Shown: one piece after another, positions 2,372 to 31,700 of the stretch
Position numbering within the stretch: position 1 is the first letter of the stretch
Layout of the letters: each line of letters opens with the position of its first letter
IMG/VR virus record: IMGVR_UViG_3300028384_001376
Location: 815 to 64,814 of that record
DNA from: a virus
DNA length: 64,000 bases
Reading direction: 5' to 3' (one strand)
Translations under genes and position numbers: made by a program
The notes under the pieces: generated by a model
Told to the model about the DNA's origin: nothing
Databases searched by the model: none
The model's input: only the letters and a program-made list of their open reading frames with translations

Positions 2372-2374
2372 CCC

Positions 2375-10192: not shown

Positions 10193-10211
10193 TCGCCGAC
10201 TCCGAAGGGGG

Positions 10212-10460: not shown

Positions 10461-10546
10461 TCGGTTAGAGCCTGATTAAAACAACAGTGCGGCACCAGGA
10501 AAGAAAGGGAGACACATAAACCCTTATTTTTAAGGAGGATTTAGCA

Positions 10547-11299
10547 ATGTCTCTCAAGCTTTCCACTGGACTTAGAAACAAAATGCTGGGCCTGCAAGCC
10601 ACCGTGACGGCCTCGTTTCAAGGCGCCACCGGCGCTTTTGTCGACGGCGGCGCCGGCGCGGACACCATCACCGACTCGGGCAACGGCTTCATCACCGCCG
10701 GGTTTGCCCCCGGCCAGGTGCTTTTTTGCAAAGGGGCCACCACGGCAGCCAACGACACGGCCGTCACCGGGGCTGTGATCCAAGGGGTGGCCGCTGGCAC
10801 CATTACTTTACTTACCGGCATCGTCAACACCGCCGAGGCCTTTGCTGCAGCCACTCTCATCTGCGCGGCCGAAGGCGGCTCGCTCAAGGACGTGCTGCGC
10901 GACGGCGTGCTGCGCATCTACAGCGGCGCCCAACCCACCAGCCCGGATGCGGCGGTCTCGGGCACCTTGCTGCTGGAGATCAGCGAAAGCGCCGGAGCCT
11001 TTGTGGCCGGCGCCTTCGACAACGGGTTGGAGTTCGGCGATGCGGCCAGCGGAGCCATCTCCAAGGCCAGCGGCGAGACCTGGCAGGATACCGGCATCGC
11101 CACCGGCACGGCCGGCTGGTTCCGCTTCGTGGGCAACCCCACCGACGACGGCTCGGCCAGCACCAGCTTGCCGCGCCTCGACGGATCGGTGGGCACCAGC
11201 GGGGCCGATCTGAACATGAGCAGCACCTCGGTCACCGTGGGGGCCACCTACACCATCGACAGCTTCACCTTGACGCTGCCGGAATATTACGGGGCATAA
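10547..11299 (+). CDS. Gly/Ala/Thr-rich virion protein (250 aa)
   Basis: AAGGAGG RBS. Composition typical of fibre or tube proteins. Confidence 0.45.
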   Translation: MSLKLSTGLRNKMLGLQATVTASFQGATGAFVDGGAGADTITDSGNGFITAGFAPGQVLFCKGATTAANDTAVTGAVIQGVAAGTITLLTGIVNTAEAFAAATLICAAEGGSLKDVLRDGVLRIYSGAQPTSPDAAVSGTLLLEISESAGAFVAGAFDNGLEFGDAASGAISKASGETWQDTGIATGTAGWFRFVGNPTDDGSASTSLPRLDGSVGTSGADLNMSSTSVTVGATYTIDSFTLTLPEYYGA

Positions 11300-11366
11300 G
11301 GGACAAAACCCATCTTTTTTTGGGGGTAGTTTTGTCCCTACAATCGGAGAATTGTAGGAGGCAATT

Positions 11367-12203
11367 ATGGCTGACCTTGTAATGCAGGAGGCGCATCACG
11401 TCCACGCGGCCGACAATGTGGTATTAATCCTGACGGTCACCGTCCAGGAGAGTTACCACGACATCGTGTGTGCGTGCGACATCAGCCCGAGCTGGCACGG
11501 GACAACGCTTTTTGACGACGGCAAGACGCACCCGCACCTTCCCGACCTGCGCATAGAGGCCCAGGCGGGAGAGCGCATCGACGCGGACGCCGAACTGCCC
11601 GGCGTCCAGCTGACCGACATGCGCGGCGGCGCACGGATGGACGACACACCCAACCTGCCCGATCTGGAGCTAAGCGCCGCAGCGCTGGTCGGCGCCACCG
11701 CATCGCTGGACCAGCGCCTGCCGGCCATGGAGGCCTCCGGGCGCACCGGCGCAAGGGCTGACGATGAGCTCATGCTGCCGGCCATGGAGCTGGGCATCTC
11801 CATCTGGGGCGATCTGCTGGCGCGTCTGGATAGGACCCTGCCGGGCTTGACGATCTCGGCCCAAGCATCGACGCCGGTGGTGGCCACCTTGGCCAAAGAT
11901 CTGCCCCCGCTATCTATCTCTGCGGCCGCATCGGCCATCACCACAGCGAGCCTAAACCGGGATCTGCCAGCCCTTAAAATCTCGGCCCAGGCCCTGATCG
12001 GCGCAACGGGCACCCTGGACGCCACGTTGCCCGACCTGGAGCTTGATTCGGACAGCGGCCTGTATGGCGATGCGCTGAGCCTGGATGCCACCCTGCCGGC
12101 CGTGGTGATGGCCAGCATTGCCACCGGCACCTTCGGCGGGCAGGCCGGAGAGCTGGTCGATAGCTCCCGGTTTACCGACTATGTGATGAGGTACGAGCGA
12201 TGA
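11367..12203 (+). CDS. repeat protein (278 aa), fibre-associated
   Basis: N-terminal HHVHAADNVV motif matches the fibre repeat unit. Then about seven ~20-aa LPxLx[IL]SAxA repeats. Confidence 0.45.
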   Translation: MADLVMQEAHHVHAADNVVLILTVTVQESYHDIVCACDISPSWHGTTLFDDGKTHPHLPDLRIEAQAGERIDADAELPGVQLTDMRGGARMDDTPNLPDLELSAAALVGATASLDQRLPAMEASGRTGARADDELMLPAMELGISIWGDLLARLDRTLPGLTISAQASTPVVATLAKDLPPLSISAAASAITTASLNRDLPALKISAQALIGATGTLDATLPDLELDSDSGLYGDALSLDATLPAVVMASIATGTFGGQAGELVDSSRFTDYVMRYER

Positions 12204-13660
12204 CGCACCTGGTCGGCCTCTTGACCCTAATCTGCATGTTTTTTGGAGTGGCCATGGATGAGCGCTCAGATCGACGCTATTTCAACTTAAACGGCATCAG
12301 CTTTGAGCTGTACGGCGACGTGGAGCAGGCCCGCAGGATTGTCCCGGCAGCCCAACGGCTGATGTTTAAGACCAAGTTGACCAACACACAAGGCCTGAGA
12401 CAGCTGCGCAACGAGGCGATGTTAGGCAATGGGATCGAGATCCGGGTTTCCAGCGTATTTGGAGACGATCGCGCCAAGATCTACTATCCGCCGGGGCCGC
12501 CGGTGGGTGTAAAACCCAAAGAGCGGATCATCACCCGCAAGAGGATGTACCCGGTGCTGGGCATCAGCCTGTCGCCCCATGAATACCTGGGCGAGCGTGT
12601 CGGCGACATGTATCAAGAGGGCCCCGTGCCGCTTTCGACCATCACCAGCTACTACATGGGCTTAGAGCAGGACCGCCTCTGGTATGAAAGCATCTTGTCG
12701 GACAAAAGCACGGAGTGGAAGAAATATAACCGCCTGGTCGATGTCAGCCTCTACGGCAACCAATATTCCACTTCCCCAAGCGAATATAGCTATACGCCCG
12801 TAGAAGATCACATCATCTGGGACCATGAATTTGCCTACCGCACCATTTGGGACCCCTTCGGCCACTCTTACAATGTTGACCCGGTGATTTTTACCTGCGG
12901 CGATTATGTGCCCGAGACCGAGCTTGAGATCGAGCTTTACCATGATGAGATCCGGGCGGCAGAGTTTGAACGGCGCTACGACTATAGCCTGGTCGTTGCC
13001 GTTGGAGCAGGGCGCAGCAGCACTTCGTCCAGCCATTACGTATATGACCGGGAATTTATGGAGGACTACAACATCCCCGACGACCTGGTCGCCGACGGCT
13101 GGCCGGAGGCGATGAGAAATCGCTGCTGTTATGCCGACGGCGATTACGAGGTGTGGGAGCGCAGGGGCTCTACCGCCACGCATAGCGGCATCTCAATCTA
13201 TTGGGAGGAGGGTTGCGAGACCAATGGGGAAGCGTCTTTCGATGAAAACGAGCACAGCGCATGCCTTTACTCCCGATATAATCTCAGCGGCGCCCGCAAC
13301 TACAGCTATCAGCTGATTTTGTACGTCGATGGCGAAGACTATCTGGTCTATTCGGGCACCCGCACAGACGATTCGGAGATGCCCGACGATATCTATGTGG
13401 TGAGCGTCAAGATCTTCGATTTTTACGGCCTGCCGGTGGTAGTCTTCGGTTATGTCCAGTTCTTTGTCTCCCAGCCCGATATCGCCAAGTACGGGATTTG
13501 GTTTAATGGCGAGCTTCGCCTGACCGAAGATTGGCCCATCGACGCATACATTACGCATCCCGTCAACGTGCCCGATGAATATTCGCACTTGTACGGTTAC
13601 GGAGAGCCGGTCGCTTTCGGCATCGAGGTCGAAGAGACGACTATCGTCGACAGCGTTTAA
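12200..13660 (+). CDS. Tyr/Trp/Asp-rich hypothetical virion protein (486 aa)
   Basis: ATGA overlap with the upstream gene. Aromatic-rich composition suggests a carbohydrate-binding or tail-spike-like role (inference). Confidence 0.45.
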   Translation: MTHLVGLLTLICMFFGVAMDERSDRRYFNLNGISFELYGDVEQARRIVPAAQRLMFKTKLTNTQGLRQLRNEAMLGNGIEIRVSSVFGDDRAKIYYPPGPPVGVKPKERIITRKRMYPVLGISLSPHEYLGERVGDMYQEGPVPLSTITSYYMGLEQDRLWYESILSDKSTEWKKYNRLVDVSLYGNQYSTSPSEYSYTPVEDHIIWDHEFAYRTIWDPFGHSYNVDPVIFTCGDYVPETELEIELYHDEIRAAEFERRYDYSLVVAVGAGRSSTSSSHYVYDREFMEDYNIPDDLVADGWPEAMRNRCCYADGDYEVWERRGSTATHSGISIYWEEGCETNGEASFDENEHSACLYSRYNLSGARNYSYQLILYVDGEDYLVYSGTRTDDSEMPDDIYVVSVKIFDFYGLPVVVFGYVQFFVSQPDIAKYGIWFNGELRLTEDWPIDAYITHPVNVPDEYSHLYGYGEPVAFGIEVEETTIVDSV

Positions 13661-13683
13661 AGCCTAATGCAAGGAGGTTACCT

Positions 13684-15648
13684 ATGTCCTTTACTTTTCC
13701 GGGTGATCCCGTAAACCTAACGGCACCGCAAGCGGTGTCCTCTTCGGGCCAAACCGTGCTCGAAAAGTTCCAGCAGGCGCAAAGCTATGCCGATTCGGCC
13801 TGGAACGAAACCTGGAACCTGCTCGACCAGCTCAGAAACCAAGAGTACTTGATCGAGTGGGAGCCCATCGAGGTGGACGATCTGGACCTGATGGGTCTGG
13901 ACGGGCTGGGCATGGAAGAGCCGGCCGAGCCTGCGGTGGACACCGACATCGCCGTGGCCACCACGACCATGAGCGCGGAGGCGCCCACCTTAGATGATGT
14001 GGATATCTCAGCCGAGACGCCGCCGGCCATGAACGTGGCCGATCCGCAGTTTGCCATCCCGGACGCGCCCACCGACGAGTTCCCGGTCTTTAGCGAAAAC
14101 GCCCCGGACCTGACGGCCATCGACTATCCGACCCGGCCGGACATCGATCTGCCGGCCGTACCGCAGCTGACCGATGTGTCGATCCCCAGCCCGCCCGAGT
14201 ACAACATCGCCGATTTCGAGGGCACGGCGCCCACTGCGGATCTGACGCCGCCGGATGTGAGCTTCAACTTTGACGAGGCGGCATATACCAGCGCAGTCGG
14301 AGACGAGCTGGCGACCAAGCTGTTGGGCGACCTGCAGACCGGCGGCAGCGGCCTGGACGAGGCCACCGAGCAGGCCATCTACGATCGGGCCATCTCGCGC
14401 CAGCAGACCGAAAACGAAAAGGTGGTCAACGATGCCTTGAACTTTTTTGCCAGCCGGGGCTTTACCCTGCCGCCCGGTGCGCTATCCGGGGCGATCATCG
14501 AGGCCAACACCCGCGTGGCCCAGATCCGCGAGGATCTGAACAACGACATTCTGATCCAGCAGTCCAACCTGGCGCAGAAAAACACCCACTTTACCATCTC
14601 CTCGTCCATCGAGCAGGAAAAGGGCTTGATGGCCCTGCACAACCAGGTCCAGCAACGCGCCTTCGAGGTGGCCCAATACACGGTGGAGGCCGCCGTGAAG
14701 ATCTACGGCATCCGGGTCGAAGCCTACAAGGCCCAGCTGGAGGCCTATAAGGCCCTGGCTCAAGTCTATGAAGTGCGCATCCGGGCCGAGATCGGCAAGG
14801 CCGAGATCTACAGGGCCCAGATCGAAGGGGTCAAGGCCGTGGTGGAGGTGGACCGGGCACGGGTGGAGGCCTATCGGGCCCAGGTGCAAGGCGTTGCCAC
14901 GCTGATCGAGCTCTACCGAGCCGAGATGGAAGGCACGCGGGTCCGCGCCGAGGTGGACCGCACCCGCGTGCAGTCTTTCGGCGCCCTGGTCGAGGCCTAC
15001 CGGGCACAGATCCAAGCGGTCACGGCCCGATACGAGGCCTACCGCTACCAGATCGAAGGCGAGAAGGTCAAAGCCGACATGTACCGCAGCCAGGTTGAGG
15101 CCTATGTCGCCCAGGTCCAGGCCTATAAGGCACGGGCCGATGTGGATGTCTCCCGCGCCCAGGTGGCCGTCGAACTCAACCGTGGCCGGGTGGAGGTCTA
15201 CCGGGCCGAGATCGAACGCTACCGGGCCGAAGTGCAGGCGGCCATCGCCCAGGCCGAGACCGAAGTCAAGGTCGAAGAGCTGGAGGTGGGGGTTTACGAG
15301 AGCCAGATCAAAAGATATCAGGCCGAGGTAGATGCCACCGTGCGGGCCTTTCTCGGTCGCGTCGAAGAGCTCAAGGCCCAGATCGACCTGGAGATCAAAG
15401 AGGCCGATGTCTCCACGCGCACGGCCATTGCCAGGTACGAGATGATGACCGAGTCGATCCGCAGCGCCGCCCGTGTGTCGGGCCAGCTGGCCGCATCGGC
15501 CATGGCCTCGGTATCGGCGTCGGCCGATATTTCGCACCGGGAGAGCCGCAGCGACTCGACGAGCCAATCGGCCAACGCCTCGGCCAGCAGCAGTCATAGC
15601 AGGGCGTACAGCCACAGCTGGCAAGATATTACCGTACATCATACTTAA
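13684..15648 (+). CDS. internal-virion / ejection protein candidate (654 aa) with ~30 tandem 11-residue helical repeats
   Basis: AAGGAGG RBS. Acidic/Pro N-terminus. A 33-nt periodic repeat encodes VEAYRAQIxGV-type 11-mers. Ser-rich C-terminal tail. Confidence 0.5.
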   Translation: MSFTFPGDPVNLTAPQAVSSSGQTVLEKFQQAQSYADSAWNETWNLLDQLRNQEYLIEWEPIEVDDLDLMGLDGLGMEEPAEPAVDTDIAVATTTMSAEAPTLDDVDISAETPPAMNVADPQFAIPDAPTDEFPVFSENAPDLTAIDYPTRPDIDLPAVPQLTDVSIPSPPEYNIADFEGTAPTADLTPPDVSFNFDEAAYTSAVGDELATKLLGDLQTGGSGLDEATEQAIYDRAISRQQTENEKVVNDALNFFASRGFTLPPGALSGAIIEANTRVAQIREDLNNDILIQQSNLAQKNTHFTISSSIEQEKGLMALHNQVQQRAFEVAQYTVEAAVKIYGIRVEAYKAQLEAYKALAQVYEVRIRAEIGKAEIYRAQIEGVKAVVEVDRARVEAYRAQVQGVATLIELYRAEMEGTRVRAEVDRTRVQSFGALVEAYRAQIQAVTARYEAYRYQIEGEKVKADMYRSQVEAYVAQVQAYKARADVDVSRAQVAVELNRGRVEVYRAEIERYRAEVQAAIAQAETEVKVEELEVGVYESQIKRYQAEVDATVRAFLGRVEELKAQIDLEIKEADVSTRTAIARYEMMTESIRSAARVSGQLAASAMASVSASADISHRESRSDSTSQSANASASSSHSRAYSHSWQDITVHHT

Positions 15649-15663
15649 TCTTAGGAGGCCGCC

Positions 15664-16737
15664 ATGCCATACGAATATGAATACAAGCCGCCTTTTCAAA
15701 GGGGCACCGATCCGTTGACCCCCATGCAGCGGCTGAACTACCACTACACCAACCGCATGGGGTCCTATGCGCCCCGGCCCAGTCCCACCCCGGACATAGG
15801 CCCAGGTGCCGTGCGGCGCGGTGCCGGCGATATCTGGACGCGGGTGCGCACCGAGCTGAGCAACATCAAACAGGGCTTTACCACCATGGGACGCGGTTTT
15901 GCCGAGGCGGGCAGAGATGTGGGCCGAACCACCGGCATTACCCAATTTGGCCAGGGTGCCATCGAGGCGGGCCGTGATGTGGGCCAGGCGCTGCAGCGCC
16001 TCAATCTGGGCCCGCAGGGACCGACCCGGTTTACCCTTAATGACCCCAATGCCCGGCCGGATCGTCCTGGACCCGGCACGGCGGCCGCCAGCCCGGCGCC
16101 CAACGCACCCACCGTGGAGACCGTCGAAAGAGGTGCGCCAAGAAGCACCTACGATCGCGGCGAAGGCGCCCCCACCGGTGCCACCCGAACCCAGGCGGCC
16201 GCCGCCACCGGCACGGCGCCGCCGCCGGTGGGGACAAATGTCCCCGCCCGCAACCGCTACCTGCAGATGTACTACGCCGGCGCCGATGCTCAGGATAAAT
16301 TTTTATCCGGCCTGCCCACCGGCCGGGCGCCCATCGAGGCCATCCGGGGCACCAAGCGCAGCTACTGGTCGCCGACCACCGAAAAAGAGTACGGCACGAA
16401 GCTGGAGGCGGCCTTTGGCGTCGAGCACAAGGAAGTGGCCGCCAAGGCGGGAGCGAAGTCGAAGCAGCAGTTCGAGCTGACCAAAGAGCGCATCAAGGCG
16501 CAGAAACCAGCCGAAATTCACAGGGTCACAGATCCTGAGACCCTCAAAGAAGAGCTCAAAATCTTTGATCCCAATACCAAGAAATTCATCGATAACGATG
16601 TCGAAAGGGACAAGGCGATTGCAGAGGCCCTGCGGGCCGGGACCGTTTCCGAAGATGAGTTCAAAGACTATTACAATAAGGCCAGCGCCGCACAGAAAAA
16701 GCGTTTGCGAGAGCTTATCGCTGGATTTCAGAAATAA
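15664..16737 (+). CDS. Pro/Ala/Gly-rich protein with charged helical C-terminus (357 aa); internal virion protein candidate
   Basis: AGGAGG RBS. Sits between the repeat protein and the giant gene. Confidence 0.45.
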   Translation: MPYEYEYKPPFQRGTDPLTPMQRLNYHYTNRMGSYAPRPSPTPDIGPGAVRRGAGDIWTRVRTELSNIKQGFTTMGRGFAEAGRDVGRTTGITQFGQGAIEAGRDVGQALQRLNLGPQGPTRFTLNDPNARPDRPGPGTAAASPAPNAPTVETVERGAPRSTYDRGEGAPTGATRTQAAAATGTAPPPVGTNVPARNRYLQMYYAGADAQDKFLSGLPTGRAPIEAIRGTKRSYWSPTTEKEYGTKLEAAFGVEHKEVAAKAGAKSKQQFELTKERIKAQKPAEIHRVTDPETLKEELKIFDPNTKKFIDNDVERDKAIAEALRAGTVSEDEFKDYYNKASAAQKKRLRELIAGFQK

Positions 16738-16749
16738 CAAGGAGGCAAA

Positions 16750-19700
16750 ATGGCTGTCTCATTGGCAGAAATAAGCCGGTGGATGGATGAGCAGGACGAG
16801 GCCCCGCGCTCAGCGCCGCAGGCCTTTCGTTTTGAACCACCGCCCCAGGCAGAGCCTTACCTGCCCCACATTAAAGCGGCCGAGCAAAAATATGGGCTGC
16901 CGGAAAACCTGCTGGCACGGGTGATTGCCCAAGAGAGTAACTTTAACCCGCAGGCGGTCTCGCCCAAAGGGGCCAGAGGTATCGCCCAGATCATGCCCGA
17001 CTATCATCCCGATGTGGACCCGGACGACCCGGTCCAGGCCATCGACTATGCAGCCGGCTATCTGCGCCAGAACGCCGACCGCTTCGGTGGCGACTGGGAC
17101 AAGGCCATCGCCGCCTATAATGCCGGCCCCGGCAATATTGAAAAAGGCATTATGCCGGCCGAAACCCAAGATTATCTCAAACGCATCAAGGGAGATGTCG
17201 CCCCGGTAGCCGGCGACGTGGATCTGCAATCGATTCTGGCCTGGATGGACGAAGAGGACCGGCGCCAGGCTGCGCCCGAGCCCGGCCTGATCAAGTCCGT
17301 CACAGGCGATGTCGCCGGCGGCTTGATCGATCTTGGCGAAATGTACGCCCGCGCCGGTCGCGCCCTGCCCGGCGGCCCGGAGGCCGGCGTCGAAGGCGGT
17401 GACTTTTTATCCAAGGCCGTCGTGTGGGCCGAAGACTTTCGCAAGGCCAACCCGAGCCTGGATGTCAATCCCAACCGCAAGGGGTTTTCGCGCTGGTTTC
17501 ACGAAGGCCTGCGTGCAGCCACTACTTCTATAGCCGCAGGCCTGCCCGGTGCGGCCGCCGGTGCCGCCATAGGTTCTCTTGTCAGCCCTGGCGTGGGCAC
17601 CTTCATCGGCGGTCTTCTCGGTTATGCCACCGGTGGCGCCACCCTTTTCGGTATGAGCGAATATGACTCGTTTCTGGAAGAGGCTCTCAATGCCGGCGTG
17701 CCGCTGGACCAGGCCGAGCCGGCCGCGATGCGCAGCGGCATGTACGAGTGGAGTTTCGAGTTTGGCGCCGATCTTTTGGAAGGTTTGACCCTGGGTGCTG
17801 GCAAACTGGCTTCCGCCGCTGGCAAGCAAGCCCTCAAGGAGACGGTTGCATCCCTTTTCAAGCAGGGCGTCAAGTCCGCTTTGAAGCGCGGGACGGGCAT
17901 CGTGGGCATCGAGACCGCCTCAGAGATGCTCACCGCCGGTTTACAGGCCGAAGAGTTGCAAGGCTTGGGCATCGGCAGCCAGCGCTTTACCGAGGCGGCC
18001 ATCCATGCCTTTGGCCCCTCGCTGGTGGCCTCGATGATCTTTGCCGGCCTGGGCGAGTATGGCCGGCATCGGGTGAGCAAGCGGGTGCAAAACACCTTGA
18101 AAGACCCCGAGGCCTCACCGGAGGCCCGCGAGGCTGCGGTCAAGATGGTCCACGACGCCATCGCCCCGGTCAATGAGCAAGTGGCGGCGCTGTGGCAGGA
18201 CACGGCCATGCAGGCGGTGGCAAACAACGAGGCCATCGACCTGGATGCGCCCATCGCCACCGACGCCCAGCTCGATGCCATGATCGAGGCCGACGTGGAC
18301 CTGGGCGAAAACGCGGCCAATGCCGTGGCCCAGGAGGAGGCTGCCGCTGCGGCCACCGAGCAGACCACCATTGAAGAAGACATCGACGCCCATGAGGCCT
18401 CCAAGGCCGCCGACCCGCTGGGCGACGACGCCATCGCCCAGGATATCATCGACAAGATCGCTGGCGGCCGTACCGCCCCGGTGGCCACCGTGCCACGCGG
18501 GCAAGGGGCCGAAGAGCTCAAGGCGGCCATTAGTGACTCAAAAACGGCCGAAAGTGAGCCACAAACCGGTTTGCCATTAACGGGTGAGGCACAAGCCTAT
18601 GAGCTGCCGCCTAAAACCGAAGGCGACTACAACCGCATCAAAGACTATGCCCAGTGGTTCAGAGCCAACCGCGATATGTCCAAGCGCTCCAATGCGGCCA
18701 GGGCCGATGAATTGGACTATTTTCTGGAGCGTCTGAGCCTGGGCAATCTGCCCATGCGACTGGCCCGAGTGATCAAAGGCAAAGGCAAGACCTGGGGCGA
18801 CGAGCGCATGGACCGCGTGGTCGATTTGCACGAACCGGTGCGCCGGGCCCTGGCTGATAAGTATGGCATGAACCTGATCAACAAGGCTTTTGAGGACCCC
18901 GAGTATAAAAAGAAGATCCGGGCCAAGCAAAAGGCCCAGGAGGAGCTACACCAACAGGCCCGCGAGCTGCTGACCGAGGACGAGTACCGCAAGGTCAGCA
19001 TGACCAACGTGCTGAGCCACTACTTCGACCCGGAGAAAAAAGAGCGGCCCACCACCTACGGCCTGGCACGCCGGCTTAACACCAGTGTGGAGGAGATCCG
19101 CGAGGCCATCGCCCTGGTCAACGAGTTCACCGACGGCGGACTCTATGTGGGCGAGCGCGGCGTGATCGACGGCACCATGTTCGATCGTGACGGTTATGAT
19201 ATGCACCGCGTCTTTCAGGGGGTGATCGACAAACGGGGTCAAACCGGGCCAAAACCGGAAGAACCGGGTGAAACCGTTTCAACCCAGGTTGAAACGCCGA
19301 CCGAAAAACCGCAAACCAAGCGCGAAAAGGCCGAAGCCGAATATAACGAGTTGGTGGCCTCTCTCACCGACGAGCAGCGCACCGCCCTGGGAGATCTGGT
19401 CAAAGAGACCGCGCCGAAAAACCCCTCGGTGTTGACCCACCGCATCCGCAAAAAGCTGGCCGAGATGGAAAAGGCGCCAGAAGCGCCGCAGATCCCCACC
19501 GATGTTATGCGAATGGTCAATGGCCGCTATGTCCAGATGACTGAGGCCGAGCGCCCTGCCCTGTACGAGCAGCTGGCTGACCTTAAAAAACAGGCCCAGG
19601 CCCACGGCGACAAGTTCCCACGGGGTACGATGCTGGCCGTCAATGCGCAGATGCGAACCCTGGAAAACGGGGCGGGCGAAATACCGACCTTCAAGACCAT

Positions 19701-22700
19701 TATCAACGAGGCCAAAGAGGAATTGGCCAAGCTGGAAAAGCCCCCGGCGCCGGCAGAAGAACCTGCCGATTCAACCTGGTGGGATAAAGAGCTGACACCC
19801 CAGGGCCGCCGCGAAGTTATGGCCAAGGCCGGCATTAAGCTGCCCGCCAGGGTCTTGTGGCGCAACATTTCGGATGAGAATCGGGCACGGCTATTGAGGG
19901 CCAAAGAAAGTGAACCTCCGGCCGGCAAAAAAACCGGCCTGACACCCGAGGGGCGAAGATCGCTCACCCGCCTGCGCGACCACCTCGAAAACAAGGGCGC
20001 CGGCTGGATACCGTCGGCAAAAAATACCTCCGAGCGCGTATCCTATCGCATTGTCCCGAGCGAAGCCAAGGACGGCTATTACAGCATCGAGCGTATTGAC
20101 GAGCGGAAGCTGCGCCAGATCCACACCGGCCCCTGGAATATGGAGCAGGCCAGGGCCGCCGCCATGAGGATGGCCAGGATGGAGCTGGAAACCGGGGAAA
20201 AACCCCCTCACCCTTCCAGTATCAAGAAGACCAAAGAAGAAAAAGCATCCGTGAAATTTGAGATCGGCGATATCGTGCGCCCCAAGCAGGGCAGCGGCAT
20301 CAGCGAAAAAAATGCCGGACGAATCGAACACATCAGCCGCGACAGCCAGGGCAATGAGTCGATCCAGACCGAAAACACCGGCAGCATGCACTTTGACGCC
20401 AAAGATTGGGAGCTGGTCACGCCCGAGGCTGAAAAGCCCTTGACACCAGATTCACAGATAGCAAATAATAAACCATTAGCCAGCGTTAGCGCCGACGACC
20501 TTCTGGCCGAGTGGGACCGGCAGGCGGCCGAGGCCGAAAAGCCGAAAAAGCCGAAAAAGCCGGAGACCTTAAAAGAGCGCCGCAAAAAGGTCAAGGCCCG
20601 GCAAAAGCAAAACGCCCAGGCGGCCAAACAGCCGGCCAAAGTAAAAAAGGCCGCCCGGCAAAAGGCCAAAGAGACCAAACAGCACCTGGCCAACGCCCTG
20701 GACGCCCTCAAGCAGATCAATAAGATTGTGGGCGAAAAGGGCCAGCTCGGCGAGGTCGACCCAACCAAATGGGAGCAGATCCGGCCGCTGCTCAAACTGG
20801 CCTGGGATGAAATGCTGGCCGCCGGCAAATCGGCCAAGGAGTTTGTGGCCCTGTCGCTGCAGACCCTGAGTCCGGCAGGCCGCCCCTATTTCGAGAAATT
20901 CGTAAGAGAGGAGATCGCCAATGAGCCTGTATCCGGTGAGAATGAAATACCTTTTGATGAGGGACTTTTACGGGACCGTGAAGAAGTGGCGGGAGAACCC
21001 CGACCAGCTGGACCAGGAGATCAGACAGACGCTGATCAATTCGGGCCAGTACGCGCAGGAGCTGAAGAGCAAGAACCTGGCATACGACCAGAGACAGGAG
21101 CTGATCAACAACTTCATCGCCCCGGCGGACGTACCGGACAAGCAAAGCCCGGACGAAAACCTGTTCGAGCAGATGATCAAGTGGGCGGAGGAAAAGGGAG
21201 CTCAGTTTCTCCAGGAGCGCAAGGCACAGAAGCGTTAGCGCCCGAGGATCGCAACCACGTCATCGCCCCCGACGATGTTATCGCCCCGCCTGGGATCGAG
21301 GGCAAAATCAACGCCAACATCAAGGCTATTCGCCTGCTCAAACAGCTGGAAGAACAAGATCGCAACCCCACCCCTGACGAAAAGAAAATCCTGGCCCAAT
21401 ATGTCGGTTGGGGCGCCTTTTCGCAAAAGGTGTTCAACGCCGACTATCACCGCTACTTGACCAAAAACAAAGACACGGCCCCGGAGGATTACTTTTGGCA
21501 GCCCGAAACGCTGAAAAAGTACAACCAGTGGGCCAACAAGTACGGCAAAAAGCTGCACCCCCAGCTCGGCGGCTTGATGACCCAGGAGGAGTGGAGCTCG
21601 GCGGCAGCGTCTACGATCAACGCTCATTTCACTTCAAAAGAGGTCGTTACCAACATGTGGGACCTGGCCAAACGTCTGGGGTTTAAGGGCGGCACCGTGC
21701 TCGAACCCGCCGCCGGCGTCGGCAACTTCTTTGGTCTCATGCCCCAGGATATCGCCCAAGAATCGGTTCTTTTCGGCGTGGAAAAAGACAGCCTCTCCGG
21801 CCGGATTCTCACCAAGCTGTATCCCCAAGCCGCCATAGAGGTGGGCCCGTTTGAAAAAAGCAGGGCGGTGCTGGACAACTCCATCGACCTGACCATTACC
21901 AACGTGCCCTTTGGCCGCGTTTCGATCTCAGACAAGCGCCATCCTGACTATGACGGCTGGCGGCTGCACAACTACTTTCTGGCCCGCAGCCTGGACGCCA
22001 CCAAGCCCGGCGGTCTGATGATGGCCATCACCTCGGCCTGGTCCATGGACGCCAAGAGCAACGGCAATGTGCGCGAATACCTGGCCAACAAAGCCGACCT
22101 GATCGGCGCCATACGCCTGCCCAACACGGCATTTAAGAGCAATGCCGGCACAGAGGTTGTCACCGATGTGCTGGTATTTCGCAAAAAGGACTCCAACGCC
22201 GCGAGCCTGGGCCACGATTTTCGCGTGGTCGACTATCTCGACAACAAAGAGTTCAGGGCGGCCGAAAAAAAGCTGATGCAAGCGCGGGAGCGGTTTGCCC
22301 GAGTGAAGAAAACCAAGCCCCAAAAAGACGCCAAGGCCCATGTCATGCGTGCCTATCGCCGGCGGTACAAGGCGGCCAAAGAGGCCGTCTCAGAGGCCAT
22401 GACAGACTATCGGGCCAGCTACGCGATCAACGAATACTTTATCAAAAACCCTGAGATGGTCCTGGGCAAGCACTCGATGAAAGGCTCGATGTACGCGGCC
22501 AACACTTACACCGTTGAGCCCTCGGGTGATCTGGCCGGGCAGATGGCCGAGGCCGTGACATCGTTTCCAGAAAATATTGCCGGCGAAGGCAGCGATCTGA
22601 GTCAACTGGAAAGGGTGGAGCTGGCCGGGATGAACGCCAAAGAGGGCACGCTGACCGTAAAAGACGGCGAGATCAAACTCATTGAAAACGGCCGTCTGGT

Positions 22701-25700
22701 CTCCCCACACTATGTGGGCAGCAAAGGTGAAAAGATGCCGCTCAAGCCGGCACAGCTCAAGCGCGTCAAGGCTTATCTCAAGCTGCGCGACCTGACGGCC
22801 GAGACCATTGCGGCCATGGGCGATGAGGCCACCACCGACGCCCAGGTCACAGACTACCAGCGCCGACTCAACCAGACCTATGATGCCTACGTCAAAAAAT
22901 TCAAGGCTTTCAACGGCAACGCTGCAAACAGTTTTCTGTCAAAGCTGGACAACGATTTTGCCTTGGTCGACGCCCTGGAGGTCCGCGTGGGCGATGGGCC
23001 CGACGCCGAATGGGTCAAGGCGCCGATCTTTACCGAGCGCACCGTATATCCTTTCAGAGAGCCCGACTCGGCCGACAGCATCGAGGACGCCATAAACCTT
23101 TCGATCATCTACCGTGGCGAGGTGTCGATGCCGTACCTGTCCGAGCTGTTGAGCATCCAGGATGCCGAAGCGATCAAGCGCGAGATCGTTGAAAAGGGCC
23201 TGGGGTTTGTCAACCCGGACACCGGCAAGGTCGAGCAGCGCGACCTGTATCTGTCCGGCAACGTGAAAAAAAAGCTGGCCAAGGCCAAGACGCTCGCTCA
23301 GGGCGATCCGTCTTATAATGCCAATGTCAAGGCGCTTGAGGCGGTTATTCCCGAAGATATTGATATCGAGTTTATCACCTTTCGCCTGGGCTCGACCTGG
23401 CTGCCGGCCGAAGCGGTCCAGGACTTTATAAAAGAGGTCATCGAGGTCGACGCCACCGTTGAGTACGTCGAAAAGGCCGGTGTGTCGCGCTGGCATATCG
23501 GCATAAACTCCGGCGCTTTCAACATAAAAAACCGTGAGACCTATGCCAGCGGCGATATTTCGGCCGTCGGTCTGATCGATCTGGCCCTTAACCTTAAATC
23601 GCCAAAGGTCATGGTGCCCACCGAGGACGGCAAGAGCACCTACGAGGATAAGGAAAAATCCAGAGAGGCTCGGATCAAGATGAACGAGGTCAGCGACGAG
23701 TTTGTCGCCTGGGCCAAGGGGCACGCCGACTGGACCTCCAGGTTGACCGCCAAGTATAACGAAGAGAAAAACGGCACCGTGCTGAGAAAGCACACCGCCC
23801 CGGATATCGATGTTTACCCCAACGCCAGCCCGGTTAATGTGGATGGCGCCCCGTTGCGGCTGCGTGAGCATCAGAAAATTGCCGTATCACGGGCCCTGCA
23901 AGAGTCTGTCCTGCTGGCCTACGGTGTGGGCACCGGCAAGACCTTTATCCTGATCACCACGGCCATGGAGATGAAACGCATCGGCACGGCCCGCAAGCCG
24001 CTGATCGTGGCCCACAACTCGACCATCGACCAGTACCGCAACAGCTTTAAGGTGCTCTATCCGGGCGCCAAGGTGCTGATCCCCAACGACAAACAGCGCA
24101 ACGCCAAGCAGCGCAAAAAGCTGCTGATCAGCATGGCCACCAATGACTGGGACGCCATCGTGCTGCCCCAGAGCTTTTTCGACGGCATCGCCAACGATCC
24201 GGCCAGAGAGCAGGCCTTTGTCGATGAGCAGATCGCACAAATCGAGGATGCCATTGCCGAGGCGGTAGCCGAGGAGGGCTCCGACTCCTGGACGGTCAAG
24301 GATCTGGAAACCCTCAAGGAGAACCGCATCCAGCGTCTGGATCGCCTGCTGGACCGTCGCCAAGACGAGGCGCTGACCTTTGAGCAGATGGGCATCGACG
24401 CCCTGTTGGTCGACGAGGTCCACTCCTATAAGCGCAGCGAGTTTTACACCAAGCTGAACAAGGTGCGCGGCATCGACAACGGCTCCAGCCAAAAGTCGAC
24501 CAGCCTGATCTTAAAGAGCCAGTTTGTCCGGCAAAAGACCGGCGGGAAAAACATTATCACGGCCACCGGCACCCCGATATCCAACACCCTGGCCGAGCTG
24601 TGGACCATGCTGCGCTATGTGCGGCCCGATCTGCTCGAAGACTATGGCGTGGCGATGTTCGACAACTTCGCCTCCACCTTCGGGGTGGTCGATGAGGACA
24701 CCGAACAGACGGCCAGCGGCTTCAAAGAGATCGAGCGCTTTAAGAGTTACACCAACGGCCCCGAGTTGCTGAGCATGTTCTACAGCGGCGCCGACGTGCG
24801 CCTGACCAAAGATGCCAACCTGCGCCTGCCGGACATCAAGGGCGACAAGCCCACGATGGTCGTCAACGACAAGTCGCCCGAGCTGACGCTCTATATCAAG
24901 GATATCATCGATCGATGGAAGGCATGGGAATTGTTGACCGGCCGAGAAAAGCGGCAACAGAAGCATGTGCCCATCGTGCTCTATGGCCTGGCCAAAAAGG
25001 CCGCCGTGGATATGCGCCTGGTCGACCCGCAGTATTTCCAAGACGATCCCAACAGCAAGGTCAACAACTGTGTGCGCGAGGCCCAGCGCATCTACAAAGA
25101 GTCTGCCGATATCCAGGGGACACAGGTCATATTTTGCGATCTGATTCGAGACAACGCCAAAGCTCCGCGCTTTAACCTGCACGAAGATCTTAGGGCCAAG
25201 CTGATCAAAACCGGCATCGGCGATGACGAAGTTGTCATATTTGAGTCCGGCCTATCCGATACCAAAGAAGAAGCCATCAAAGACCGGGTGCGCAGCGGGG
25301 CGATCCGGGTGATTATCGGCACCACCGAGCGCCTGGGCATTGGCGTTGACATCGCCGACAAGATCGTGGCCGGCCATCATCTGACCGTGCCGGATCGGCC
25401 CATGGATATGGAGCAGCGCAACGGCCGGTTTATCCGTCAAAGCAACAAAAACAGCCAGGTCGAAGTGCTACAATACGCCACCAAGGACACCCTGGACGCG
25501 GTTATGTTCCAGCGCCTGGCCACCAAGCAAAAGGGCGCCGACCAGGTTCTGACCGGCGATATCGACGGCCGCGACTTCGAGGACCCGTACAGCGCCGAGC
25601 AGGCCGATTTTAACGAGTTCGCCGCTGCGGCCTCGGGCAAGGCCGGCAAGCTGTTGTTTGAAAAGAGCAAGCTGACCAGCCAATTGCACAAACACCGGAT

Positions 25701-28700
25701 CGCCGAACAGGCCCATATTCGCAAGGTCTCCAACGCCCGACGGGAGATCAACCAGATCCCGGAACTGATCAGGCACGCAGAGATCGACTTGGCAAACGCC
25801 GAGCAGTTCAAGGCATACACGGACGAGGCCTTTCCTACCGGCAGGCTTGAAAAGCTGACCATCGACGGCAAGGAGATGCCCCGCAAGGAGGCCTATGAGA
25901 TCCTCACCAAGCGCATCGAGAGCCAGATCAGCGCCTGGGAGGACGAGTTTATCGGCAAGCCCATGGGCGATTTTCGCAAAAACGCTCCTGACAAAGATGG
26001 GTATGGAGACCCCAGGCTCAGCGCCGAGTATAAGCTGGCCGCCGGCGATATCGAGCTAAGGGTCGAGCTGATCGGCCGGGAAAACTATACTAAGGAGAGA
26101 AAGCCGTCGACTAAGCTGCAATGGTCTGAGGTCCGGGATAGGAGGGACGAAGATTGGCGCACCCAAAAGGTCGGCAATATCCCGATCAGCCTAAGATTCA
26201 AGGGCCGATTCCTGGGCCATATCTACAACGTAGGGCGCAAAAGCCTGGCCCAGCGGATCACCAGAAAACTCAACGAGCTAATTGCCGAAAGCAAAACGAG
26301 GCCGGATTATCATCGCAAGGCCATTAAGGCGCACAAAGCGGATATGGCCGAATATGAGAAGATCGCCCAGGAGTCGTTCAAATACCGCGAGGAAATGACC
26401 GAGATCCAACGCCGCATCGCCGAGATCAAAGCGGAGCTGACCCGGCTGAGCTCCGATGAGCTGCTCGGCGTCGAAGACGAGACGGCCGAGCAAGAGACGC
26501 CGGCGCCCAGCGGCATAGTCTACCATACGAAAAGCTCGGGACAGATCCGCACCCAGGCCATGAAGGACTTAAAAAACGGGATCATGCGCCTGCTGGTCGA
26601 CGACCTTAACCTCCACCGCCATGAAATCGAGGACTGGAAAGAACACATCAAAGAGGTCAAGGATACGCCCAAGGGCATTGTGATCGCCACCAGGAACTTT
26701 ATGGCCGCTTATGACTATGAGCTCAGCGCCGATGCGCGTCGGGCCCTGGGCCGGTTGATGCGCAATGCCACCGAGCAGATCAACCAGGGCCAACTGGTCG
26801 GCACCTTTGGAGAACCGCTGAGCGCCGGTATTCCAAAGGCCCTGGACGAAACCTTGCCCGATGACCTGCCCGAAGGGGTCACCCGGTTTGCCATGGGCAC
26901 CGCCGTCGAACGCCGGGCCCTAAATGTCCAACAGGTGCGCAACGTCCAGCGTGCCGCCGAGGTGGTCACCGCCGCCTTGTCCAAAGCCGGAGTCTCCAAG
27001 GCGTTGCGCAAGCAGATCACCCTCGACTTTAAGCCGATCATCGACCTGCGCGGCAAGGACATCGAGCAGACCGTCAAGGAGTGGGCCGCCCAGAAAAAGA
27101 GCGTTTCCACCATCTTGGGCGCCACCACTTTTAGCCGCTTCAACGCCCTGGTACAGCTCTCCCTGGAGCAGGACCTGACCAGACTGGAGCGCACCAGCTA
27201 CCACGAAGCGCTGCATATCCTGGCCCGCTGGGTGCTGCCCGAGGCCGAATATGGCCGGTTGATGAAGATGTATGACGGCAACGAAGAGGCCGCCGCCGAG
27301 GGCTTTGCCGACTATATGGCCGGGCGCACCAAACCGATCGGATGGCTGCGGCGCATCTTCATCAAGCTGCGCAACTTGCTCCGGCGGGTGGGAGGCGCCC
27401 TGCGCGGCGCCGGCTTTGTCAGCGCCGAGGATATCTTCGGTCGAATGGCCGGCCGGGCCTATACCGGTCAACCGATGCGACCGGCTACGGGCACCAGCAT
27501 CGCCCTGATGGCCGAACAGCGGGCCGCCAAATGGTACAGTCAGATGGAACGTCACCTGGAAGCCAAATTGCCGGGCAAAGGCACGCCGGCGCAGATCAAA
27601 AAGCTGCTCGACATCTGGGCCAAAAAGGGCCAGATCAACGCCGAGGAGCTGGAGTGGTCGGGGCTGCGCGAGTGGTTGGATGATTTCCAAAAGACAAAAG
27701 AGGCCGAATGGGTCGAGCAGCAAAAGCAATCCAAACAGATCAAAGACGAGCTTGGAAGGGGATATATGGACTTCTTGCTCGGAAGACATGAAACCGCCCT
27801 CGAAGGCATCAAAAGCTATGACCGGATCATAGACCGCTTAAAGGGCGAGGCTAAAAAGCAAAAGTTTGCCGTTACAAAGGCTGACGTGCTGGCCCAGCTG
27901 GCCGCCGGCCGGGTGCGGATCGAGGAGGTGGTAAAGGGTACATATCCGGTTTTAGACACCATCGCCAAAGAGATGGGTTATGGTGGATGGACGGCAGATT
28001 TAACAGATGAACAACAGCAAGAGATTATTGCTGAATCAGAAAGATATCCCCATCTTGGCGATGCCACCAAATTCGCCCAATGGCAAGAACCCGGCGGCGA
28101 GAACTACCGCGAGTTGCTGCTGACGCTGCCGGCAAAACAAGCACCTTTAAAAGATATTGATACGTCAAGCTGGACAGTCGAAACAATAGAAGAAAATGAG
28201 TACACTGGGCAGCGCGATATAGTCATTTTTGATGAAAACGGAAATCGATTAACTACGCGGTATGGGTTTAGAGGCACTGACGAAATGGCCATTGGCCAAA
28301 TGTCTGAAATAGAGAAAGACAGAGCACAACGGGCAAAGCAAAAAGAAGCAACCTATAAATCCACCCACTGGGACGAGCCCAACGTGTTGGCCCATGTCCG
28401 TTTCAACGAGCGCACCGGCACCGATGGCGAGCGCATCCTGTTCATCGAGGAGATCCAGAGCGACTGGCACCAGACCGGGCGCCAGAAGGGGTATAAAGGC
28501 GATATACCACACCCAAAAATCCGCAAGGTCGGCACCGTCCACACTTATACGCAAGAAGAATTAAAAAAAGAAGCAGACCATTGGCCCGTTGATTACATGC
28601 GAGATATTTCCGGGTTGAAGGCATCGGACATAACCTCTTTATCTGATCGCCTGACGAGGGAGGATCAAGAGCGGATACTCGAAGGGATAAAGGCTGGTGG

Positions 28701-31700
28701 GCGTCTCGGCAAAACCAATCCAATATGGGTGGTGAAAAATCCTGCCGGGGAGATTGTTTTTGCCACAATGTGGGGCAAAGGTGTGGCAGAGCAAACCGCA
28801 AACAAGTGGACCATGGCAGATCCCAAAACAGATAAGGAGCTGTTGGACAGAGAGGGGGATAGAATACGCCATAGCTCAAAAGAGGTTGTCGAACAACAGG
28901 CCCACTACCGCAGGGTCAACATGCAAGAGGGCATGGTCCCCGACGCCCCCTACAAAAAGACCTGGCCCCTGCTGGCCATGAAAAGGATGGTGCGCTACGC
29001 CGCCGAGGCCGGCTTCGACGCCATCGCCTGGACGCCGGGCGAGGTGCAGGCCGAGCGGTATGATTTGAGAAAGCACATCGATAATCTTTACTACGAGAAG
29101 CATCCAGACGGCATCACCATCGTTGCCAACAAAGATGATCGGCCCATCCTTGAGAAAGACAAGCTGTCCGAGCGTGCTTTAGAAGACCATGTTGGCAAGG
29201 ATTTGGCCAAAAAGATCATCGATGCAAAGGATGACCAAGGCATCTTCGACGGCCTGGATCTCAAAGTCGGCGGCCAGGGAATGCGCGGCTTTTACGACAA
29301 GATCCTGCCGGCCACGGTCAACAAGTTCTTCGGCAAAAAGGCCTGGGGCAAGGCCAAGGCCGAGACAATAGTGATCCCAAAAACCGCATTGTCTCCAGGG
29401 GAAAAAATTGACAGGTCAAGCCCATATGCCAGGGAAGTCTGGCACCTGCCCATCACCCGCGAGATGCGTCAAAAAGCCCTGGGCGAGGGCATGACCTTGT
29501 TCCAGGTGGCCGACACCACCGACGTTTTCGGCGAGGTGCTGCCCGAACCGGTGGAAGAGCAGATGAAAGCCGCCCGTGGCCGCGACAAGGCCAGCGTCAA
29601 GCAGCGTTTTTCCGACTGGCTCAAAACGGCCATCGCCACCTTCACGCCGGGCCAGATGTATCCGCAGATGCCCAACAAATACTTTGGCAAGGAAAACGAG
29701 ATCCTGCGCCGCTTCGTGGAGATCGCCAGCTACTCCAAGTCGCGGGCGGTGATGGACCTAAAAGAGATCCTCAACCCCAAACAGCTGGGGCCGGCCGGAT
29801 ACGACCTGTTTAACCTAAAGATCGTGCTCGACGACATGCTCTACGACGTGGAGACCGAGGGCCGGCCGCTCAACGACTGGCAGGAGCGCTACGGCGAGCT
29901 GCCCTTCGGCTTTGAAAGCGCCGACCAGCTGCGCGAGTCATTGGCTCGCATCGACCAGCGCGTGGCGGCCAACGCCGACGTGGCCGCAGCGCTGCAAAAA
30001 CGGCGCAAGATCATGCGCAAGCTGCGCCGGGACCTGGTGGCCGAGGGCCTTTTGGACCGCTCAGTATTGGATGACGAGCGCTACTTTCACCATGAAGTGC
30101 TCCAGTATGCCAACCTGGCCCACATGGCCGGCGTGGGCACCGGCTCGCGGGATGTGCGCACCAAGAAAAAGGGCTGGCAGATCTACCGCACCGGCTCGAT
30201 CAAAGACTACAACACCGAATACATGCAAAGCGAGTTCAAGGTGCTGGCCCAAGGCTACTCCCAGCTGGAGACCAAGCGTATCCTCGATGAGCTGGATGAG
30301 TCGAGCAACATCATCGGCGAGCTGCGCCACAAGGCCCGACAGCTTAACTATGTGGCCATCGTCGGCGGCCAGGAGAACTACAACCGGCTGCAACAGCTGC
30401 GCAACCAGGTGGCCTACCTGCGCGGCGACGGTCGAGACCTGGACAGCGATACCAAGGCCCAGATCAAAGCGCTCACCGACGAGATCTGGCAGCTGGACCC
30501 CACCATGCCCTTTCGGCAAAAGATCGCCATCGGCATGAGCAAGATGGGCGAGCCCCTGGAAGATGACCTGGAGTATATGGACTTTTCCGAGATCGCACGG
30601 CTGGCCGACGCGGGCGACATGGGCGCGGCCACGGTGCTAAAGGCCGTCAACGAGCGCAAGGCCTTTATCGCCGAGGCCCTGGGCGACGCCCACATGACCT
30701 GGCAAAAGCTCATGGAAGAGCGCGAGCCGCGCAAAGGGTCGGCCGGCTGGGCCGAGTGGATACCCAAACCCGGATCGGCCTGGTATCTGACCAACTCGCT
30801 GACCGACAAGCTGCTCGAACAGGTGGCCGCCGGGCTGCCCATCAGCCAAGAAGAGATCCGTCAGGTGTGGACCCGTGGCACCGACAAGCGCTGGGTAGTG
30901 CCCGCCGAGCTGGCCGAAGTGCTCAACGGCAAGGAGTTTATGAACCTCAAGCAGGACAACGTGGTAGCCGAAGCGGCTGAAAAGACCCTTAATTGGTGGA
31001 AGCGCTGGATACTGATCAACCCTTTTCGCTTTTTCAAGTACAACTTTAACAACCTGTCCGGCGACTTCGATATCGTCCTGGCCTATGACCCCAAGATCTT
31101 AAATTGGACCAAGCAGGCCGCCATAGACCTGTGGGCCCATCACTACGACAAGCCCATGGGGCCGGCCACCAAGGCCGAGCTGACCAAGGCCCTCAAGTAC
31201 GGCGTGATCGGCTCGGGCATGACGGTGCATGACATCCCCGACATTACCGACAGCGCCCAGTTCGATCAGCTGATCAGCGCCCTGCGGGCCGACAAACGCA
31301 AGGGCATCGACTACATCAAGCGCTTTTGGGGGGGCAGTAAAAACTTTACCACCTGGCGCGAAAACGTGCTGCGCCTGGCCTCCTATCGCTATTTTCAAGA
31401 AAAAGTTAGGGCCGGCAAACGGGTCTACGGTGCCAGCGACGTGGCCAAGGTCGATGCGGTCACCGATCCAGACAAAAAGGCCGCCTTGCTGGCCCGCGAG
31501 CTGATCGGCGACTACGGCGGGCTGAGCAAGGGCGGTCAGTGGCTGCGCCGCAATGCGATCCCCTTTTACAGCTGGAATGAGATCAACGCCCCGCGCTACT
31601 GGCGCATGTTCAAAAACCTGCCCGTCGAGGGCGAGCCCAGGGGCCGGCGCCTGCGCATGGGCGGCGCCCTGGCCAAAAAGGCCGGCGTAACCACGGCCAA

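Follow-up and report, generated by a model that had tools for sequence, protein, structure and literature searches.

The stretch of DNA analyzed here (the window) comprises 64,000 nucleotides of the IMG/VR virus record IMGVR_UViG_3300028384_001376 (positions 815 to 64,814 of that record) and represents almost all of a contig from the genome of an uncultured phage. The final gene in a run of structural genes encodes a giant protein of 5267 amino acid residues (aa). We found that an internal segment of this protein is, as judged from its sequence, a member of the DarB-type methylase-helicase dyad, in which an adenine methyltransferase is joined to a SNF2-type ATPase. Every defining feature of the dyad that can be tested in a sequence was present. 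By analogy with DarB of phage P1 and related proteins, we consider it probable (about 0.7) that the giant protein is packaged and ejected, and that its dyad protects the entering genome in cis, by methylation and/or occlusion.

A DarB-like module inside a giant phage protein

The PHROG family 10089, named "DarB-like antirestriction", matched aa 1503-3070 of the giant protein with 1310 bits (E = 0). The extent of the module as one homologous unit was taken from this alignment, from the spans of the blastp matches to the giant proteins of Bcep22 (gp75), Itty13, PEp14, LASTA and VvAW1, and from the related protein P0211, whose residue 1 aligns to aa 1510 of the giant protein, i.e. at the module start. 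An earlier note on this DNA had placed the feature at 21560-25450. The homologous unit is slightly larger and runs from about 21256 to about 25959 (Table 1).

Within the module, an LPD36-like helical domain is followed by a gamma-class N6-adenine methyltransferase, a family-specific middle domain and a SNF2 ATPase. Comparison with P1 DarB (from NC_005856) yielded three collinear blastp segments, covering the methyltransferase (P1 DarB residues 87-280, 32.7% identity, E = 8e-27), the helicase N-lobe (22.6% identity, E = 4e-14) and the helicase C-lobe (29% identity, E = 1.6e-6). The motifs quoted in the earlier note (VLEPAAGVGNFFG, TNVPFG, DEVH and QRNGRFIRQ) proved to be real. All of them lie in one open reading frame (ORF) on the plus strand, and the agreement goes far beyond chance (1310 bits for PHROG 10089, 36.8 bits for the Pfam model SNF2-rel_dom). 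The spacing of about 550 aa between methyltransferase motif IV and the helicase was underestimated, as we measured 670 aa to the Walker A motif and 833 aa to the DEVH motif.

"DarB-like antirestriction" is already the standard annotation for giant phage genes of this kind, and the reading is not new. The module, with ~32% identity to any cultured phage, is one further divergent example of an anti-restriction module that has been known for a long time, and by itself it changes little.

The helical domain and the methyltransferase

The domain N-terminal to the methyltransferase carries the motif GWGA and is helical in an AlphaFold2 (AF2) model. The first three residues of the motif (alignment columns G53, W54 and G55) are nearly invariant in an alignment of 73 homologs. 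GWGA aligns with GEGG of P1 DarB, and the motif is kept in the phage giants. Sequence and model of this domain fit the LPD36 "GxGU" domain (U = G, A or S) that was described for the dyad (PMC5512222).

The AF2 model covered aa 1501-1960, was built on the 73 homologs, and had a predicted local distance difference test score (pLDDT) of 85 and a predicted template modeling score (pTM) of 0.84. A Foldseek search of the PDB with this model returned as best solved-structure matches lmo1582, BsaXI, HsdM subunits of Type I enzymes, M.BseCI, M.TaqI, CamA, LlaBIII and DrdV. These matches are gamma-class N6-adenine DNA methyltransferases. The family profile was in register with M.TaqI throughout the diagnostic motifs (family/M.TaqI: TSpeV/TPPEV, LEPamGiGhF/LEPACAHGPF, GvElD/GVEID and GNvPFg/GNPPYG). 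T1628, E1652, G1656, G1658, E1678, D1680, N1718, P1720 and F1721 were invariant in the 73-sequence alignment; the invariant positions include the ExxxGxG motif for S-adenosylmethionine (SAM) binding and the catalytic N, P and F.

Motif I, motif IV and the capped helix of such a methyltransferase could all be recognized in the sequence and the model, with substitutions that are typical of the family. The helix cap reads FTS instead of TP, with an invariant T1628. In motif IV, the second position is variable and the N, P and F are invariant. Of 120 close homologs, most have N[VI]PFG; P1 DarB has GNVPFG, and the giants of Bcep22, PEp14, LASTA, Itty13 and VvAW1 have GNPPFG. Because NVPF is the majority form in close homologs and is also found in P1 DarB, it does not, at the sequence level, represent degeneration. 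Adenine-N6 methyltransferases of the Erm/KsgA type are active with N(I/L)PY in this place. The amino-methyltransferase motifs I and IV that had been noticed before are therefore intact, being in register with M.TaqI and invariant in 73 homologs.

The SNF2-type ATPase

The C-terminal half of the dyad was recognized by the Pfam models SNF2-rel_dom (36.8 bits against a cut-off of 24.9, E = 3e-9) and ResIII (E = 5e-9). Its best PDB sequence matches were ISWI, INO80, DDM1 and HELLS, which aligned across the SNF2-specific motif III "TGTP..N.L.ELW". The SNF2 motifs I, Ia, II, III, IV, V and VI were all kept when the protein was aligned with P1 DarB and six giants of other phages (eight sequences in total). 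The complete DEVH helicase core ending in QRNGRFIRQ, as described in the earlier note, was thus borne out with all seven motifs. The same note had named degenerate NPPF/DPPY or Walker motifs in a catalytic-motif alignment as the outcome that would speak against it; in the alignments, the TaqI register was kept and SNF2 motifs I-VI were conserved.

The conserved positions provide a mutagenesis map for tractable homologs such as P1 DarB and JC1 gp69, consisting of T1628, E1652, G1656, G1658, N1718, P1720, F1721, the middle-domain signature YLSGNV..KL and SNF2 motifs I-VI. Searches of the whole giant protein with Pfam, NCBIfam, PHROG and PADLOC revealed no known nuclease family, although aa 3076-4256, which resemble no family, could contain a novel nuclease.

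Distribution and behavior as a cassette

Homologs of the module were detected by tblastn in 137 GenBank phage records, in every case with less than 60% identity; the best of them had 31-35% identity and covered 85-98% of the query. Most of the phage matches are annotated as "DarB-like antirestriction" (Itty13, POI1126, VvAW1, PEp14, Atu_ph08, PBC5, LASTA and the Bcep22 group). Alignments with seven phage giants (Bcep22, PEp14, LASTA, Itty13, VvAW1, PBC5 and Atu_ph08) spanned more than 85% of the module and had 31-35% identity. Dyad homologs were also present in 2033 plasmid records, 703 of them conjugative, and 1107 of the 2033 cover at least 80% of the module at 30-35% identity. Metagenomic stand-alone homologs of the dyad had 1300-1850 aa. 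Close relatives were scarce: a megablast search of the flagged interval against GenBank phages gave no match, a peptide-pattern scan of IMG/VR gave no close relative, and the same kind of scan of GTDB genomes gave only two matches, both at distant loci of metagenome-assembled genomes.

The public records of two of these phages deserve comment. In Pseudomonas phage Itty13 (NC_070969.1), a plus-strand frame of 4112 aa, located from 6625 onward and homologous to DarB-like giants, lies opposite the annotated hypothetical genes gp01-gp03, so that the annotation of this part seems to have been placed on the wrong strand. In Sinorhizobium phage PBC5 (NC_003324.1), the DarB-like giant at 4937-20685 is annotated as two coding sequences (gp22 and gp21) with a gap of 1.6 kb, which tblastn matches cross. 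This suggests a frameshift or a sequencing error in the record.

The behavior of the module was assessed in 72 representative proteins of at least 2500 aa that share the C-terminal domain of the giant protein. All three parts (methyltransferase, middle domain and helicase) occurred together in 18 of them, the methyltransferase alone in none, and the helicase only in two. One of these two, P0247, aligns from its residue 12, and its sequence is consistent with an N-terminally truncated fragment. The two closest relatives of the giant protein were equally similar to it in their C-termini (53-54%), whereas the modules were 45% (P0211) and 29% (P0212) identical. Judged from these comparisons, the dyad is an optional, indivisible accessory cassette that recombines between scaffolds. 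An accessory, scaffold-swapping dyad fits a function in conflict and argues against an essential motor for DNA entry. That it moves as an indivisible cassette between unrelated giant-protein scaffolds supports the accessory conflict role, and it argues that methyltransferase and motor work only together.

The giant protein outside the module

The giant ORF is open over 15.8 kb, with a GC content at the third codon position (GC3) of 0.747 in the plus frame. Across the module, GC at the three codon positions was 0.585/0.379/0.771, like in other genes of the window, which identifies the plus frame as the coding frame. A database record of a 5267-aa protein identical to the giant protein exists (one JGI/IMG contig of 64,814 bp). 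Three long ORFs (310, 201 and 223 aa) run antisense inside the module, on the minus strand at 22939-25182. Their GC content peaks at codon position 1 (0.76-0.85), as a mirror image of plus-strand GC3, and they are therefore shadow ORFs and not genes.

The N-terminal lytic transglycosylase (SLT) domain also matched PHROG 342, which is named "internal virion protein with endolysin domain". Two glycine-rich, glycine-zipper-like hydrophobic segments follow and are a possible membrane-inserting part of an ejection protein. On the P0211 contig, the hydrophobic part is a separate gene of 907 aa (262-2985), located upstream of a shorter giant that starts with the DarB module.

Between module and C-terminal domain lies an orphan region that could be assigned to no family. 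It is nearly free of homologs, with two weak matches in a word-index search. The motif HEALH (aa 3485-3489, 27202-27216) looks like a zincin site, and a peptidase that frees the module was considered. This was rejected as unsupported, because the motif had no Pfam match and the HExxH pattern was not kept in homologs aligning nearby. The middle of the giant gene (20001-30000, module plus orphan region) has a GC content of 0.55-0.59 compared to 0.61-0.62 at both ends, and GC3 drops to 0.62 at 19750-21249 and 27250-28749. This pattern is weakly consistent with a mosaic origin.

The C-terminal domain of about 1000 aa is the constant scaffold to which the module is an optional addition. A family search retrieved 9199 representative proteins at E <= 1e-3, and the stricter limit of E <= 1e-30 left 1728. 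The family comprises at least 9199 clusters at 50% identity. The match was almost always at the extreme C-terminus, in proteins of 1000-6600 aa. The domain had no sequence match in Pfam, PHROG, NCBIfam or the PDB, and tblastn with aa 4661-5267 found nothing in 50,697 GenBank phage records or 72,556 plasmids. This large unannotated domain family is the more unusual item in the giant protein; the dyad itself is ordinary.

Predicted function and alternative explanations

Homology, fold, motif integrity, the accessory and cassette-like distribution and the late-operon context were observed directly. It is only homology that supports the proposal of the earlier note that the module may be a co-injected anti-restriction activity: the module is collinear with P1 DarB, and its motifs are intact. 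The position as the last structural gene and the N-terminal SLT domain fit an ejected virion protein. P1 DarB is virion-borne and co-injected, and the Dar proteins belong to the P1 head and work in cis (PMC12707154; PMC5512222). Protection in cis from Type I restriction is known for P1 only. For the Bcep22-like giant JC1 gp69, 51 unique peptides were obtained by mass spectrometry from virions purified in cesium chloride (PMC9144972).

From these relatives we infer packaging, ejection, catalysis of methylation and an anti-restriction phenotype. The giant protein would be packaged into the virion and, at infection, ejected with or ahead of the DNA, with the transglycosylase and the hydrophobic segments acting in the cell envelope. 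The dyad would then reach the cytoplasm and load onto the entering phage DNA. Tracking along this DNA with ATP, it would methylate adenines and/or occlude or displace Type I-like restriction complexes, and the genome that carried it in would be protected in cis. Such a tracking-and-protection model was proposed for the dyad by Iyer et al. (PMC5512222).

Several points weigh against this reading. No target-recognition domain was identified in the module, and the middle domain had no relative among solved structures. All Pfam methyltransferase models stayed below their thresholds (Eco57I reached 16.8 of the required 25.3 bits), so that the methyltransferase identity is based on PHROG, fold and profile evidence. 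Homologs of the P1 partners DarA, Hdf, DdrA, DdrB and Ulx were not found in the window by tblastn at E <= 0.1. The upstream virion genes showed no similarity to those of Bcep22, PEp14, LASTA, Itty13 or VvAW1, and packaging can therefore not be argued from synteny with proteomically characterized relatives. The giant protein and its phage are known from an uncultured metagenomic contig alone. For P1 DarB itself, the mechanism is described as not defined, methylation was not demonstrated in the literature that we found, and plasmid-based assays are confounded by restriction alleviation (PMC11109961).

The alternative that fares best, while still unlikely in our judgment, is protection without methylation. 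The SNF2 motor and a methyltransferase scaffold that binds DNA would coat the phage genome, or strip or block restriction complexes, and the methyltransferase fold would serve mainly as a DNA clamp or base-flipping clamp. Reviews describe Dar as possibly a physical obstruction that works strictly in cis (PMC12707154), and the undefined mechanism of DarB (PMC11109961) and the missing target-recognition domain point in the same direction. Against this stands the invariance of E1652, G1656, G1658, N1718, P1720 and F1721 in 73 homologs, in alignment with the active site of TaqI, which is the pattern expected from selection on catalysis. The two explanations overlap and do not exclude each other.

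It is improbable that the SNF2 ATPase is primarily a motor for genome internalization, pulling phage DNA into the cell, with the methyltransferase in a secondary role. SNF2 enzymes are translocases on double-stranded DNA (PMC5512222), the SLT domain and the hydrophobic segments would act on the envelope, and the gene sits where podophages encode their ejection proteins. However, about 75% of the long proteins with the same C-terminal scaffold do without the module, so that it is not needed for delivery there. Deletion of darB in P1 was reported to cause sensitivity to EcoB and EcoK, not a loss of infectivity (PMC11109961), and the presence of the dyad on so many plasmids, conjugative ones included, does not fit an internalization motor either.

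Even less credence is due to an action on host DNA, either as remodeling or marking of the host chromosome or as part of a phage-borne restriction-like or exclusion system. Polyvalent proteins do combine many offensive activities (PMC5512222), and there were weak generic matches to the SNF2 and methyltransferase profiles of the defense proteins DrmD, ZorD, PglX and MAD2. On the other hand, P1 Dar works in cis on packaged DNA (PMC12707154). The defense matches did not exceed 30-40 bits and covered short stretches, compared to NCBIfam cut-offs of 500-1500 bits and to 1310 bits for the DarB-like family, and no nuclease domain was recognized in aa 1501-3100 by Pfam, NCBIfam or PADLOC.

We give hardly any weight to the idea that the module has decayed and persists without function within a large structural protein. 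NVPF and FTS in place of the textbook NPP(Y/F) and TP and the subthreshold Pfam scores might be taken to point to decay. However, NVPF also occurs in P1 DarB and most close homologs, no catalytic position varies, each of the seven SNF2 motifs is complete, the long frame is free of stops with normal GC3, and Erm/KsgA enzymes show that N(I/L)PY is compatible with activity.

A broader reading concerns the carrier. Doubtful as it still is, the family of uncultured-phage proteins to which the carrier belongs could be a general delivery chassis with swappable injected effector cassettes, the DarB dyad being one of them (in ~25%). For the dyad itself, a corresponding reading would be a sequence-independent "blanket" adenine methylation coupled to SNF2 translocation, a notion that derives from the failure to find a target-recognition domain.

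Genome context

The coordinates of the module, the other parts of the giant protein and the structural genes are collected in Table 1. Downstream of the giant gene lies a replication and recombination module with exonuclease VIII-like and replication-initiator-like genes. Large terminase and portal are located at the end of the window (56012-64000) and the major head gene at its start (1-1196). The contig probably represents an entire phage genome with circular permutation. By analogy, the late position of the giant gene, the SLT domain and the hydrophobic segments fit the layout of ejected virion proteins.

Table 1. Features of the window, with residue numbers of the giant protein and nucleotide positions in the window.
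Feature	Residues (aa)	Position	Strand	Basis or remark
Giant ORF carrying the DarB-like module		16750-32553	+	5267 aa, single uninterrupted frame; ORF list, translation
Lytic transglycosylase (SLT) domain, N-terminal	41-139	16870-17166	+	Pfam PF01464, E = 6.8e-25; PHROG 342, E = 8e-26
Two glycine-rich, glycine-zipper-like hydrophobic segments	260-291, 416-435	17527-18054	+	Kyte-Doolittle scan
DarB-like module, full extent	~1503-3070	~21256-25959	+	PHROG 10089 alignment; blastp spans; P0211 start
LPD36-like helical domain		21292-21609	+	Alignment, AF2 model, comparison with P1 DarB and phage giants
GxGU motif GWGA	1553-1556	21406-21417	+	In LPD36-like domain
Gamma-class N6-adenine DNA methyltransferase domain (predicted)		21610-22629	+	blastp, AF2, Foldseek, TaqI profile alignment
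NAHFTS helix	1624-1629		+	Methyltransferase
Motif I, VLEPAAGVGNFFG	1650-1662	21697-21735	+	Methyltransferase
Motif II, GVEKD	1676-1680		+	Methyltransferase
Motif IV, TNVPFG	1717-1722	21898-21915	+	Methyltransferase
Family-specific middle domain between methyltransferase and helicase	1961-2370	22630-23859	+	Signature YLSGNV..KL, aa 2167-2176
SNF2-type ATPase/translocase (predicted)	2371-2960	23860-25629	+	Pfam, PDB sequence matches, eight-way motif alignment
Walker A (motif I), GVGTGKT	2392-2398	23923-23943	+	SNF2 ATPase
Motif Ia, LIVAHNS				SNF2 ATPase
Motif II, DEVH	2555-2558	24412-24423	+	SNF2 ATPase
Motif III, TATGTPISN..ELW	2604-2612 (TATGTPISN)		+	SNF2 ATPase
Motif IV, VIFCDL				SNF2 ATPase
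Motif V, GTTERLGIGVD				SNF2 ATPase
Motif VI, QRNGRFIRQ	2889-2897	25414-25440	+	SNF2 ATPase
Orphan region (~1180 aa)	3076-4256	25975-29517	+	No recognizable family
Conserved C-terminal domain (~1000 aa)	4257-5267	29518-32550	+	Family search, cassette statistics
Major head protein		222-1196		
Head-closure protein		3110-4024		
Tail or virion proteins		up to 16737		
Large terminase		56012-57655		
Portal		58619-60910		

The stretch at 34001-36418 has the lowest GC content in the window (0.494). It contains, both on the minus strand, an ORF of 400 aa at 34189-35391 with no PHROG or Pfam family and an HTH_3 repressor-like gene at 35960-36418. Together they may represent a lysogeny or regulatory switch, or a moron. 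The sole Rfam or ARAGORN match in the window was a tRNA-Gln (anticodon TTG) at 49509-49582, which is adjoined by a gene for a DUF7873 protein (48531-49274, E = 2e-74).

Comparison with known systems

P1 DarB (2255 aa) has the same domain order as the module, with a helical GxGG/GxGA domain, an N6-adenine methyltransferase, a middle region and a SNF2 ATPase. The two are collinear in blastp, share an identical NVPFG core in motif IV (GNVPFG in P1 DarB) and keep all helicase motifs, but identity is just 23-33%. P1 DarB is free-standing and enters the head by means of the partner proteins DarA, Hdf, DdrA, DdrB and Ulx, which P1 needs to package it, whereas the dyad described here is an internal segment of a 5267-aa protein. 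By sequence, it does not belong to a multi-gene Dar system of the P1 type, of which DarB alone has a counterpart here. The packaging partners may be dispensable when the dyad is fused into a structural giant protein.

The "DNA methylase-helicase dyad" of polyvalent proteins (Iyer, Burroughs, Anand, de Souza, Aravind 2017, PMC5512222) likewise combines an LPD36 GxGU domain, an EcoKI/TaqI-like adenine methyltransferase and a SWI2/SNF2 ATPase within a multidomain protein that is delivered with the invading DNA. It differs in motif IV and in the helix cap, which are NPP(Y/F) and TP there but NVPF and TS here. None of the other Pfam domains that usually occur in polyvalent proteins was recognized in the giant protein. 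Plasmids and integrative and conjugative elements (ICEs) encode "N12 class adenine-specific DNA methylase / SNF2-related" proteins with the same dyad, at 30-35% identity over more than 80% of the module. Unlike the dyad of the giant protein, these are stand-alone genes outside phage structural proteins, and are expressed or transferred at conjugation.

Restriction-modification (R-M) enzymes of Type I, Type ISP and Type III (HsdM/HsdR, LlaBIII, EcoP15I) also couple a gamma-class adenine methyltransferase to a translocase of superfamily 2 (SF2), and the modeled fold matches HsdM and LlaBIII. The module differs from them in its SNF2-type ATPase and in that neither a nuclease domain nor a specificity subunit or domain resembling HsdS was detected. 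Membership in DISARM (DrmD), BREX (PglX), Zorya (ZorD) or MADS (MAD2) was rejected, as the scores of the NCBIfam models were far below the family cut-offs (DrmD 28.6 bits against 610, PglX 19.5 against 500, ZorD 17.8 against 1500, MAD2 19.6 against 720). PADLOC defense matches reached at most 30 bits over short stretches. The plasmid-encoded, single-strand-specific methyltransferase M.EcoGIX was considered as a characterized relative and dropped, because the paper on it describes neither a helicase fusion nor a relation to DarB.

A similar architecture is found in the giants of Bcep22-like and related podophages (Bcep22 gp75, JC1 gp69, PEp14 gp27, LASTA gp01 "PLxRFG protein", Itty13, VvAW1, PBC5 and Atu_ph08 gp21). 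They have 3600-4900 aa, and their genes come last in the structural module. An SLT domain is found at the N-terminus of several of them, and the dyad occupies a similar internal position (aa ~1600-3100, 31-35% identity). The SLT domain of the giant protein gave blastp segments to the giants of PEp14, LASTA and Itty13, and an SLT domain and an internal DarB module are combined in one giant late gene here as well. Only these two parts are in common. Residues 3075-5267 showed no similarity to the giants of cultured phages by blastp and profile search. The profile of the C-terminal domain does not match the giants of PEp14, LASTA and PBC5, and the PLxRFG motif is absent from the giant protein. Membership in the "PLxRFG" giant family of Bcep22 and PEp14 was therefore rejected. 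As far as the sequences can tell, the same cassette is carried here by a different scaffold, in a different phage lineage.

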